Below, piece after piece: positions 56,754 to 58,466 of a stretch of 64,000 nt of DNA. Source of the stretch: Akkermansia muciniphila (GTDB taxonomy: Bacteria > Verrucomicrobiota > Verrucomicrobiia > Limisphaerales > UBA11320); the NCBI GenBank assembly GCA_945861575.1, contig CAMAVD010000002.1:6667-70666 (forward strand), given 5' to 3'. Numbering within the stretch: position 1 is the first letter of the stretch; the number at the start of each line of letters is the position of its first letter. The notes under the pieces are model-generated. The model searched no databases. It was given only the letters and a program-made list of their open reading frames with translations, and was not told where the DNA came from. The position numbers were made by a program, and so were the translations under genes.

Positions 56754-57416
56754 TTACATACCTGTTGGCAATGGCTCGTGACAGGAAAAATTCAGGGACC
56801 TACAAGAGGCCCCTCCGTGGGTAGGTTCACTTACCGCGAGGGAACGGAAGCCGAAGGTGCCTGCCCGCAGAATCGCGGTGATTGCGTGGGTTGTCGTATC
56901 CCATAGGCGCACGGTGCCATCGGCGCTCGCTGTGATCAGCGTTCGGCCATCGCGAGTGCGACGTATGCTCTTGACCCTCTGCTGGTGGGCCTCAAACCGT
57001 TCAGACTCGGCGCTTCCATCCAACCGCCATAGCAGCGCGTGACCGTGAATATGCCCGGAAAACAGGCTGAGGCCGTCGAACGAGAAATCGAGTCGACTTA
57101 CATACTCGCCACCCCTCAGCCCGGGAATTTGGAGCGACAGAAGCGCACCCCCATCGGCCGCGTCCCAGATTTTGATCTTGCCGTCAGGTGAGAAAGCAAC
57201 ACCGACCCGGTATGCTATGTCCTGCTCGGCGGAAAACCGGGTGATGAGGTCTCCAGTTTCGACGTCGAACAAGACATGCCCAGCGGCGCCGGCGGCTAGG
57301 AGGCAAGTCGAGTTTAGGGAAAAGGCAAGCGATTGAACCCAGCCGCTGTTGGTCACCGTTCCAGATTCGGTCGGCACCAATCGCGTCTTCGTTCCAATGA
57401 CCCCGGAGCACGGCAC
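56754..57416 (-). pseudogene. WD40-repeat fragment
   Basis: 220 aa, GTG start, no N-terminal domain. One repeat is collapsed (AFSPDGK-IKIWDAADGG lacks the inter-strand segment). ASADGTVRLWD is intact. Confidence 0.4.
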
Positions 57417-57612: not shown

Positions 57613-57776
57613 GGCTGGCTTGCCAATCCGTCGCTCGCATGTCCGATGTCGGACGGGTCCGCCTATGCCGAGGCTTCCGCCTACGCCGAGGCTTCCGCCT
57701 ACGCCGAGGCTACGGCGTGACGAGACGTCGTGACGAGACGGCGTGACAGCCTTCGCTTCCACTGCGTGGCGAGCGC
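57613..57776. repeat. tRNA-linked repeat, copy C (diverged, internally expanded)
   Basis: Same ends as copies A and B (GGCTGGCTTGCCAA... ...CAGCCTTCGCTTCCACTGCGTGGCGAGCG). Inside: 18-bp CCGCCTAYGCCGAGGCTT x3 (57659-57712) and GTGACGAGAC duplicated (57717-57739, part of a 13-bp repeat tract to 57747). Confidence 0.9.
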
Positions 57777-58019
57777 TTAGAAGTGTTTCTTCGCGAAGGC
57801 TCTTCCAGAAGCTGTCTTGAGATACTGTTCGAAGCTGGCAGCTCGCTGGCGATCGCCCATCGCGACCGCAGCTCTCACTCGCCATGGCCTATAGCGCCTC
57901 GTGTGCGCCACATCTCCGGCATTATGTCGCTGGAGGCGTTCCTTCAGATCGTTCGTCAGTCCTACATAATGCCGTCCCGCATGGGCACAGCTCTCCAACA
58001 TGTAAACGTAGTGAAACAT
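57777..58019 (-). CDS. Small GIY-YIG nuclease family protein
   Basis: 80 aa from MFHYVYMLESCAHAGRHYVGLTNDLKERLQRHNAG...FEQYLK (GIY/YIG, Arg and Glu motifs). The track's longer start reads into repeat copy A. Confidence 0.8.
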   Translation of the reverse strand: MFHYVYMLESCAHAGRHYVGLTNDLKERLQRHNAGDVAHTRRYRPWRVRAAVAMGDRQRAASFEQYLKTASGRAFAKKHF

Positions 58020-58038
58020 CCCCCCCTTTTCTCCATCT

Positions 58039-58141
58039 GGCTGGCTTGCCAAGCCGTAGCTCGCGTGTCCGACGTCGGACCGGTCCGCCTTCGCCAAGGC
58101 TTCGTCGTGACAGCCTTCGCTTCCACTGCGTGGCGAGCGAA
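58039..58141. repeat. tRNA-linked repeat, copy A (103 bp)
   Basis: Identical to copy B at 102 of 103 positions. Nested palindromes GGCTTGcCAAGCC, GTCCGACGTCGGAC and CTTCGCT-n14-AGCGAAG. Confidence 0.95.
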
Positions 58142-58166
58142 ATGTAATTCGGGATCATTCTCCTCA

Positions 58167-58269
58167 GGCTGGCTTGCCAAGCCGTAGCTCGCGTGTCCGA
58201 TGTCGGACCGGTCCGCCTTCGCCAAGGCTTCGTCGTGACAGCCTTCGCTTCCACTGCGTGGCGAGCGAA
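58167..58269. repeat. tRNA-linked repeat, copy B (103 bp)
   Basis: Ends 3 nt from the CCA end of tRNA-Arg. One C/T difference from copy A. Confidence 0.95.
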
Positions 58270-58272
58270 GGC

Positions 58273-58349
58273 TGGTGCGCGCGGCGGGAGTTGAACCCAC
58301 AACCTACGGCTTCGGAGGCCGGCACTCTATCCAATTGAGCTACGCGCGC
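58273..58349 (-). tRNA. tRNA-Arg (anticodon CCG), CCA encoded
   Basis: Reverse complement GCGCGCGTAGCTCAATTGGATAGAGTGCCGGCCTCCGAAGCCGTAGGTTGTGGGTTCAACTCCCGCCGCGCGCACCA. 7-bp acceptor, D and T arms, anticodon loop CU-CCG-AA. One C-U mismatch at 27-43. Confidence 0.93.
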
Positions 58350-58466
58350 TCCAAATGGCTGCTCAAGAAAAACCTTTCCGCATTGGAAAAGCCAGACTCT
58401 TTTCGCAGGGATCGCTTGCCCCTTGCTCCCTCCCTTCCCTCTCCTTAGGCTGACGCTCGTCATCTT

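Follow-up and report, generated by a model that had tools for sequence, protein, structure and literature searches.

What brings an 80-codon nuclease gene to lie between copies of one repeat, directly behind a transfer RNA (tRNA) gene? The locus that raises this question lies in a 64,000-nucleotide stretch of contig CAMAVD010000002.1, assigned to Akkermansia muciniphila (assembly GCA_945861575.1) and referred to here as the window, on the minus strand of which tRNA-Arg(CCG) is followed, in order, by repeat B, repeat A, a gene of 80 codons for a predicted GIY-YIG nuclease, and an expanded repeat C. A first-pass annotation, made from the letters of this DNA, had proposed that the nuclease colonises a tRNA-linked repeat. 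That idea proved essentially right, and the repeat is far more than a local array of palindromes. On balance we think it probable, if not strongly so, that the locus represents a widespread two-part system in which a hairpin element of ~100 nucleotides (nt), anchored at the 3′ ends of tRNA and transfer-messenger RNA (tmRNA) genes, is paired with a cognate GIY-YIG nuclease of 80 amino acids (aa) encoded inside arrays of the element; such a system would be a sister, rather than a member, of the recently described Ssn/NTS systems, and would spread, we infer, by break-induced recombination.

Results

Three copies of a repeat around a small nuclease gene

The arrangement described for the window is real and confirmed (coordinates are collected in Table 1). 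Copies A (58039-58141) and B (58167-58269) are 103 nt each and differ, as first described, at one position (99.03% identity, blastn), a similarity for which recent duplication or gene conversion is a plausible source. Copy C had also been read correctly: both of its ends are kept (a 66-nt end with 87–89% and a 37-nt end with 97% identity), and between them the 3′ strand and loop of a helix termed P2 are present three times, as 18-nt units at 57658, 57676 and 57694 (57658-57711), while a 13-nt duplication is seen at 57712 and 57725, the 5′ strand of P2 likewise being counted three times (13-nt units, 57712-57737). The conserved ‘box’ of the repeat is degenerate in copy C (CGACGGATTGGCAAGCC, 57617-57633). 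Two long sub-patterns of the repeat have three occurrences each in the window, against 0.00 expected. Neither sensitive BLAST searches nor degenerate-pattern scans recovered a further copy from the 64 kb, which hold no second GIY-YIG gene and, according to ARAGORN and the Rfam tRNA model, no tRNA other than tRNA-Arg(CCG); the same two tools returned nothing from the repeat units themselves, on either strand.

Two details of the first description had to be revised. Copy B had been placed 3 nt from the CCA end of the tRNA; the GCC that follows CCA (58272-58270) is part of the element in every relative and is missing from copies A and C, and the element thus abuts the tRNA, whose 3′ end reads ...CGCGCACCA (58273-58281, last base 58273). 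Moreover, the palindromes that had been taken as independent, stacked units are parts of conserved, covarying helices. The nuclease open reading frame (ORF; 58019..57777, 80 codons plus TAA) matches Pfam PF01541, GIY-YIG, at E 1.2e-14, and its reported position, behind a purine tract and with its TAA abutting copy C, was found unchanged. An ATG start for the 80-codon ORF is consistent with the family alignment; the public gene call (P0001) is a 106-aa version that starts at a TTG and overlaps copy A. On the coding strand of the window, neither a sigma-70-like promoter nor a terminator was recognised in the interval from the tRNA to the ORF.

The element starts at the exact end of tRNA and tmRNA genes

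When one genome per species was scanned, at least 540 genomic sites proved to encode a relative of the nuclease; the locus counts in this paragraph refer to the best 80 of these, for which flanking sequences were fetched (individual loci carry L numbers). They derive from Verrucomicrobiota, Planctomycetota, Acidobacteriota, Alphaproteobacteria (Bradyrhizobium, Rhizobium and Caulobacter), Desulfobacterota, Lentisphaerota, Nitrospirota and others. A tRNA or tmRNA on the same strand ended 86–476 nt before the ORF in 58/80 loci, represented by the tRNAs for Val, Ala, Met, Arg, Tyr, His, Ile, Lys, Ser, SeC and Pro as well as by tmRNA. In three further loci the tmRNA was cut by the contig end, and in 12 loci without a full tRNA a tRNA or tmRNA 3′ fragment (...CTCCA or ...CCACCA) stood directly ahead of the repeat; these account for the other loci that could be assessed.

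The junction between the two is exact. The first module of the element, alpha, lies at offset 0 (position +1) from the tRNA or tmRNA end in 58/61 loci found through the nuclease (>90%) and in 57/73 loci found through the box (78%). This placement recurs in relatives from more than 10 phyla and behind at least 16 isotypes plus tmRNA, the latter, a single-copy gene, making up 14/61 cases, a strong over-representation. Where CCA is not encoded (L003, L062, L076, L080) the element follows the discriminator base, and it is always co-oriented with the tRNA. Because elements that lack the gene also abut the tRNA exactly, this junction is a property of the element and not of a promoter need of the gene.

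Several loci show variations on this address. In L015, L044, L046 and L067 (tRNA-Val ... tRNA-Asp) and in L061 and L070 (tRNA-Ala ... tRNA-Arg) the cassette is placed inside a tRNA cluster, with a tRNA gene on either side, so that in the primary transcript tRNAs would enclose the nuclease mRNA. In one Bradyrhizobium locus (L037, 2780-2822) a minihelix-like stretch takes the place of the full tRNA-Ala ahead of the element, with an acceptor-stem-like GGAGCC...GGCTCC pair, a degenerate T-arm and CCA. Partial tRNA 3′ duplicates lie beside copies in L011, L052 and L076, the first of these being associated with a 1.3-kb insertion with a duplicated tRNA 3′ end. Locus L002, which shares the isotype tRNA-Arg(CCG) with the window, showed no synteny with it.

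A composite element with covarying helices

Alignment of tRNA-to-ORF spacers defined the modules of the element. Alpha (G-N-C-TTCG plus an extension) begins at position +1 after the tRNA and has a perfect complement of 7–19 bp, beta′. P2 consists of G(C/T)C-R-CGNC-GNAG, a variable hairpin and CGNAG-N′CG-G(G/A)C, with a GNA/GNA internal loop. The near-invariant box, CTACGNCYYGGCAAGCC (consensus CTACG-N′-C-YYGGCAAGCC), is preceded by alpha′, a second complement of alpha's extension. These modules come in two orders: in type I (36 loci) the box follows alpha's hairpin, and in type II (24 loci, the window included) beta′ and P2 lie inside the loop of alpha's hairpin.

Covariation, proposed earlier as a check on the repeat copies, was analysed on 54 instances reduced to fixed columns, and the helices do covary. 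P2 was 98% paired, with compensatory changes at two pairs (CG39/UA14 and CG35/GC11/UA5), and the same pattern held across 122 distinct P2 copies (CG90/TA28 and CG86/GC21/TA9). One position of alpha/beta′ showed four pair types (CG34/UA13/GC4/AU2), and the alpha/alpha′ extension was 87% paired, with changes on both sides in 5/6 pairs. Slid controls were 30–48% paired, and the observed values for cells paired, cells changed on both sides and covariation score were reached by 0/500 shuffles. The variable base of alpha matched beta′ in 53/54 instances and the box in 46/54, and 7/8 of the exceptions at the box matched P2. G-U pairs compared with A-C mismatches as 16 vs 14 in P1 and as 15 vs 4 in P2. 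Single-unit folding energies were marginally better than those of shuffles (z −0.3 to −2.2). No Rfam 15 family matched the element at E ≤ 1 in the window region and 33 related loci, where the matches obtained were to tRNA, tmRNA and an unrelated riboswitch.

Likenesses of the element to known structures were also considered. The type II order superficially fits the P1-P2-P3-P1′-P4-P2′ topology of a self-cleaving ribozyme like that of hepatitis delta virus (HDV) at the junction; this was dropped, as the topology is broken in the majority order, type I, and at E ≤ 1 no model of the HDV family matched. A tRNA-like or permuted-tRNA reading found no model match, its sole trace being a 17-nt antisense likeness: the box CTACGGCTTGGCAAGCC (window 58171-58187) is the exact reverse complement of the anticodon arm of tRNA-Gly(GCC), a resemblance that may be coincidence or a trace of the element's origin. 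Box matches in two viral contigs (L081 5076-5092 and L083 4645-4661, box strand) appear, from a T-arm and an anticodon arm recognised by eye, to be tRNA genes on the opposite strand. The box ends in GCCA in 73% of copies, and the notion that its tail mimics the CCA/GNC junction is weakly supported, the full echo being present in 10/71 (14%).

In Lentisphaerae (L054 2821-2847; also L019, L030, L052, L055 and L056) the first hairpin is a canonical intrinsic terminator, with an A-run, a 12-bp stem and a T-run, and alpha and the box still lie on either side of it.

The element occurs with and without the nuclease gene

That the nuclease is nested in a tRNA-linked repeat family, as first suggested, was borne out well beyond the window. 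The box stood immediately upstream of 77/81 family nuclease genes, and in approximately 12/80 relatives the element, or part of it, was repeated directly after the stop codon, copy C of the window being one such case. These direct repeats may be long and nearly perfect (L008, 133 nt, 100%; L021, 56 nt, 100%; L040, 86 nt, 99%), and are also present in L013, L035, L067, L074 and others. Element-ORF cassettes occurred in tandem behind one tRNA or tmRNA in L013 (3240-3560), L041 (2519-3240) and L047 (3240-3460); the second gene is decayed in L013 and L047, and the tandem genes of L041 have diverged (41% and 60% identity to the window protein).

A motif-first scan, in which the box was searched against metagenomes, gave 120 loci, 65 of which had enough flanking sequence. 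Among these, 28 comprised a tRNA and a solo element, 15 a tRNA and the gene, one the gene only, and 21 neither, several of the last being chance matches in coding sequence or copies after tRNA fragments. Solo elements were found behind tRNA-Leu, Thr, Cys, Glu, Gly and Asp in addition to isotypes seen with the nuclease gene, and in their minimal form (L143, L144, L193, L199) consist of alpha, a hairpin and the box only, ~35–50 nt in all. The variable hairpin took 53 different forms among 78 copies, and one of these, GCTCGCTTCGCGAGC, recurred behind five different tRNA isotypes, indicating that copies have spread or been homogenised among tRNA loci.

The empty sites that the first-pass annotation had suggested looking for were found, with the ORF polymorphic in presence at orthologous positions. 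Filled locus L031 reads tRNA-Lys, element, ORF, decayed element, flank, and its empty counterpart L096 tRNA-Lys, element, flank; likewise L186 (tRNA-Ala, element, ORF, partial element, flank) is matched by L182 and L161 (tRNA-Ala, element, flank). In each case filled and empty loci differ by the ORF and a single copy of the element; the breakpoints lie inside the repeat, and no integrase is involved. The element is the primary part, and the nuclease gene an optional occupant.

A GIY-YIG core related to, and distinct from, Ssn

By sequence, the window protein is assigned to the GIY-YIG nuclease superfamily, and GIY-YIG is the sole domain detected in its 80 aa. Y4, Y6, Y18, G20, R28, H32, N33 and E64, all of them conserved GIY-YIG positions, are invariant across 24 relatives. 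AlphaFold2 returned a model with a predicted local distance difference test score (pLDDT) of 96.3 and the order strand-strand-helix-helix-strand-helix-helix. Homologues are ~81 aa long, with 59–73% identity to the window protein. In searches by sequence and by structure (Foldseek, hidden Markov models), bacterial UPF0213 BH0048 and eukaryotic Slx1 matched best, the latter at TM 0.70–0.75, a root-mean-square deviation of ~2 Å and 30–33% identity. The HN-G motif and the core Arg and Glu of Slx1 and of UPF0213 proteins (BH0048, EF2693; YhbQ-type) are common to the window protein, which, unlike Slx1, carries neither a RING nor a zinc-finger domain and lacks an Slx4 partner. The substrate of Slx1 is branched double-stranded DNA, and to our knowledge no linkage to repeats or tRNAs has been noted for Slx1 or UPF0213 proteins. 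The window protein had no match in the PADLOC library of defence systems, a weak generic match only in the PHROGs phage library, and an E value of only 0.054 to the NCBIfam ‘group I intron endonuclease’.

Systems in which a small GIY-YIG nuclease is paired with a cognate hairpin repeat have been known since 2025. The Ssn proteins are enzymes of ~94 aa (cd10448) with a single GIY-YIG domain; their genes are flanked by NTS/SRM hairpin repeats, and they act exclusively on single-stranded DNA, which they cut beside the repeat (Chenal et al., Nat Commun 2025, PMC11893778). Membership is defined in that paper by E < 1e-10 to N. meningitidis SsnA or by assignment to cd10448, and the published SRM pattern is HGTCWYN(0-2)YYVSBRHN(0-5)WNVSBRGN(0-2)RNCYNB (PMC11893778). 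For comparison, an Ssn-type family was retrieved with a probe sequence, and one of its proteins, P0174, served as proxy for SsnA on the strength of the two canonical NTS repeats beside its gene, CGTCATTCCCGCGAAGGCGGGAATCCAG lying 32 nt before the start and a second NTS 3 nt after the stop. The presence of NTS on both sides of this gene validates both the Ssn-type family and our implementation of the SRM pattern, which matches the NTS consensus and both repeats of the P0174 locus (L206, 2969-2996 and 3297-3324). The P0174 gene is wedged in an operon of atuA, acyl-CoA dehydrogenase and enoyl-CoA hydratase genes and, unlike the window family, has no tRNA nearby.

The likeness between the two families is considerable. 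Both are single-domain GIY-YIG proteins of ~80–100 aa, both genes have hairpin repeats in the same orientation on either side, a few bases from start and stop (B and A upstream and C downstream in the window), and in both the repeats occur as solo copies; the families are homologous, hhalign matching them across the core only, at 32% identity (probability 96%, E 4.8e-9). They differ in the C-terminus (FERYLKTASGRAFAKKHF in the window family, REKQLKxWxRxWKxELIE in Ssn types), in the repeat, which is a ~100-nt composite of two helices and a box rather than a 28-nt hairpin, and in the anchoring of the window element at tRNA and tmRNA 3′ ends. Measured against the P0174 proxy, the window protein falls outside the SsnA clade, and on its sequence the window family is not a member of Ssn as defined in PMC11893778. 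By analogy, it very probably works in a similar way.

Neither tRNA nor tmRNA is mentioned in the Ssn paper (‘tRNA’, 0 occurrences; PMC11893778), which was the only relevant article returned by literature searches on GIY-YIG with tRNA, tmRNA and RNA motifs; these yielded no description of the element and no paper containing its motif strings. The protein family, the composite element and its strict tRNA/tmRNA address therefore appear to be undescribed.

Discussion

How the two parts might act together can be sketched from the Ssn analogy. The nuclease would recognise the folded, single-stranded element on the tRNA-sense (non-template) strand and nick nearby. Recombination or annealing repair between element copies would then duplicate or delete units, and by the same repair a solo element could acquire the ORF of an element-ORF-element donor, since the element itself supplies both homology arms. 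Break repair between copies would account for the near-identity of A and B, the slippage-expanded C and the tandem cassettes found elsewhere. The ORF is probably expressed by read-through from the tRNA promoter, since in the window it has no recognisable promoter of its own, is separated from the tRNA by no recognised terminator and is co-oriented behind the tRNA, and elsewhere the cassette lies between clustered tRNAs. Of the two possibilities initially offered, a homing-type cassette probably stands in so far as it means a nuclease that colonises or targets the repeat; a classical double-strand homing endonuclease is unlikely, because the protein is an 80-aa core without a DNA-binding domain and its nearest characterised relatives, the Ssn proteins, are single-strand-specific.

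A number of observations weigh against this two-part system as outlined. Single-strand nuclease activity is transferred to the window family from Ssn by analogy, as kinship with Ssn is distant (window protein vs P0174, BLASTP E 6e-5 over 40 residues) and the SRM pattern had 0 matches, on either strand, in the 400-nt flanks of 81 window-family loci. No homologue of the nuclease was found on 72,556 plasmids, so that plasmids are not the vehicle of any horizontal spread. Left unexplained by the model are the exact +1 junction at tRNA and tmRNA genes, the covariation of alpha's variable base with both beta′ and the box, the two module orders and the Lentisphaerae terminator variant. An element that acts as RNA would be just as likely to show strict co-orientation with the tRNA and strong covariation, and the excess of G-U over A-C on the sense strand (15 vs 4 in one count, 26 vs 22 in another) is modest and compatible with either RNA or one folded DNA strand.

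The element might instead act as RNA, forming a structured 3′ trailer of the tRNA and a 5′ leader of the nuclease mRNA, with the gene a passenger that exploits the transcript. Position +1 would then be the punctuation of tRNA 3′ processing (a substrate of, for example, RNase P, RNase Z or an RNase E-type enzyme), and a switch between alpha/beta′ and alpha/alpha′ might control termination or translation. Several observations speak for such a role: the junction coincides exactly with the tRNA processing site, even in loci that do not encode CCA, tRNA and element always share one orientation, some cassettes lie between clustered tRNA genes, and in the window neither promoter nor terminator separates tRNA and ORF. 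The strong covariation, in which two mutually exclusive pairings of alpha are both maintained, and the preference for G-U over A-C in P2 point the same way. However, G-U and A-C are equally frequent in P1 and alpha/alpha′, which is unusual for a selected RNA helix. For the structured RNA array first envisaged, the covariation is strong but the G-U excess weak. Nor did any Rfam model match at E ≤ 1, and folding energies are only marginally better than those of shuffles. The two module orders alter RNA topology, copies A and C are otherwise maintained without the 5′ part of alpha, and the terminator in L054 lies inside the element, upstream of the box, beta′ and P2, which would therefore rarely be transcribed from the tRNA promoter. 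We regard an RNA role as unlikely, though still in contention.

A transposable element of a new type, site-specific for tRNA and tmRNA 3′ ends, would follow the logic of IS200/IS605 insertion sequences (IS) with their palindrome-associated transposable elements (PATEs) or miniature inverted-repeat transposable elements (MITEs), the mini GIY-YIG protein serving as a strand-specific transposition nuclease and solo elements being non-autonomous. The offset-0 junction behind so many isotypes, the excess of tmRNA, ectopic copies that bring a tRNA or tmRNA 3′ fragment along, the same variable hairpin behind different isotypes and the GCCA box end, a weak echo of the CCA junction, would all suit it, and an IS-like architecture was pointed out by the Ssn authors for their own system (PMC11893778). 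Against it, no motif-less allele of a filled tRNA site was found that would define an insertion boundary or a target-site duplication; DNA hydrolysis is the reaction of GIY-YIG enzymes, for which strand transfer is not known; the full junction echo is confined to 14% of boxes; the paralogous nuclease genes of one genome (L030, L052) are only 82% identical, so that no recent burst is visible; and plasmids carry no homologue. Transposition in this sense seems rather improbable but is likewise in contention. That the locus is an ordinary repetitive extragenic palindromic (REP)-like repeat or terminator lying by chance beside a nuclease gene, or a leftover attachment site of an island, is largely refuted and very improbable, although the element is hairpin-rich, GC-rich, behind a tRNA and without an Rfam match, the first hairpin in Lentisphaerae is a terminator, and L011 has the 1.3-kb insertion with a duplicated tRNA 3′ end. 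A generic REP, the reading against which the first-pass annotation had set its own, sits ill with a +1 start behind tRNA or tmRNA genes in most loci of both searches, the lack of any other copy in 64 kb, a box sequence conserved across more than 10 phyla and its position upstream of 77/81 nuclease genes, and an attachment site with filled and empty pairs that differ by the ORF and one element, with no integrase.

It is possible, but doubtful, that the two-part system amounts to a new class of mobile DNA, in which the element and its 80-aa GIY-YIG protein insert at exact tRNA and tmRNA 3′ ends via strand-specific, structure-guided nicking, solo elements being MITE-like copies, and which would form a second repeat/nuclease lineage, independent of Ssn/NTS and with a universal, defined address in the genome.

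Parallels with other known systems are partial. REP/REPIN-RAYT (TnpA-REP) and IS200/IS605-PATE systems likewise have one small nuclease gene among cognate hairpin repeats, with non-coding copies outnumbering the gene and recognition of a folded single strand as the likely logic, but their enzyme is an HUH/Y1 transposase, whereas the sole ORF between the repeats of the window is GIY-YIG; moreover, REPs flank RAYT genes in inverted orientation and number hundreds of copies genome-wide, in contrast to direct copies tied to a tRNA end. Free-standing GIY-YIG homing endonucleases, among them the seg genes of phage T4, of which SegB lies in the T4 tRNA cluster, are also selfish nuclease ORFs in or next to a conserved target, with filled and empty sites and spread by break repair. 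Seg and I-TevI, however, have 200–250 aa with a DNA-binding domain and cut double-stranded DNA, while the window protein is a catalytic core only, and no direct target repeats surround the Seg and I-TevI ORFs. Islands and prophages with integration sites at tRNA genes share the preference for tRNA, and especially tmRNA, 3′ ends and the partial tRNA 3′ duplicates, but a unit of the window type measures 0.1–0.4 kb, has no integrase and joins after the last tRNA base rather than inside the gene.

If the two-part system is as we propose, the Ssn principle would extend to a second protein family with a different and much larger repeat, tied precisely to the final base of tRNA and tmRNA genes, which rank among a cell's most heavily transcribed loci and are classic hot spots for the integration of mobile DNA. 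That address would offer a concrete handle on the in vivo role of nuclease/repeat pairs, left open by the Ssn paper (PMC11893778). For annotation, and possibly for tRNA 3′ processing, it is relevant that many tRNA genes are followed by a conserved element of ~100 nt that lacks annotation, and the family supplies candidate site-specific single-strand nucleases with new specificities.

Features and surroundings of the window locus

Table 1. Features of the tRNA-linked cassette, listed from the tRNA in the direction of transcription.
Feature	Position in window	Strand	Evidence and remarks
tRNA-Arg(CCG), CCA encoded	58273..58349	minus	ARAGORN; Rfam tRNA, 66.1 bits
Element copy B, complete, tRNA-proximal	58167..58272	minus	Repeat family; same modules in 56 parsed relatives; covariation
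Copy B, alpha GCCTTCGCTCGCC	58260-58272	minus	
Copy B, P1 loop and beta′	58241-58260	minus	
Copy B, P2 helix	58211-58240	minus	5′ strand 58228-58240, 3′ strand 58211-58221
Copy B, small hairpin	58195-58208	minus	
Copy B, alpha′ and box GCGAGCTACGGCTTGGCAAGCCAGCC	58167-58192	minus	
Spacer between B and A, ~25 nt, TGAGGAGAATGATCCCGAATTACAT (minus strand)	58142..58166	minus	Read from sequence
Element copy A	58039..58141	minus	Box 58039-58064; without the first three alpha bases (GCC)
Leader with purine tract GGAGAAAAGGGGGGG	58020..58038	minus	Putative ribosome-binding region
Gene for 80-aa single-domain GIY-YIG nuclease (predicted), SLX1/UPF0213-like core type	57777..58019	minus	Pfam PF01541
Element copy C, expanded	57613..57776	minus	Begins directly after the TAA stop; GCCTTCG of alpha absent

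A contig of 1.2 kb from a sister strain (L211 1-1186, Logan SRR20217172) matches window positions 58103-57676, with a gene 97.4% identical. Its array has two 18-mers vs three in the window, a different P1 loop and an extra P2 half upstream; the contig breaks inside the upstream repeat, and its downstream flank is unrelated to that of the window. The context of the cassette is thus not fixed even between close strains. Sister strains were also sought through exact matches to the pyruvate kinase of the window, of which none was on record.

Two neighbouring features of the window were also noted, both on the minus strand. Only ~20 nt ahead of the tRNA start (58371-58393), in the divergent control region of pyruvate kinase and the tRNA, is a hairpin with a T-run that resembles a terminator; it is probably spurious or part of the promoter region. 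Downstream of copy C, a WD40-repeat ORF of 220 aa with a GTG start (56754-57416) may have been truncated by the cassette or array.

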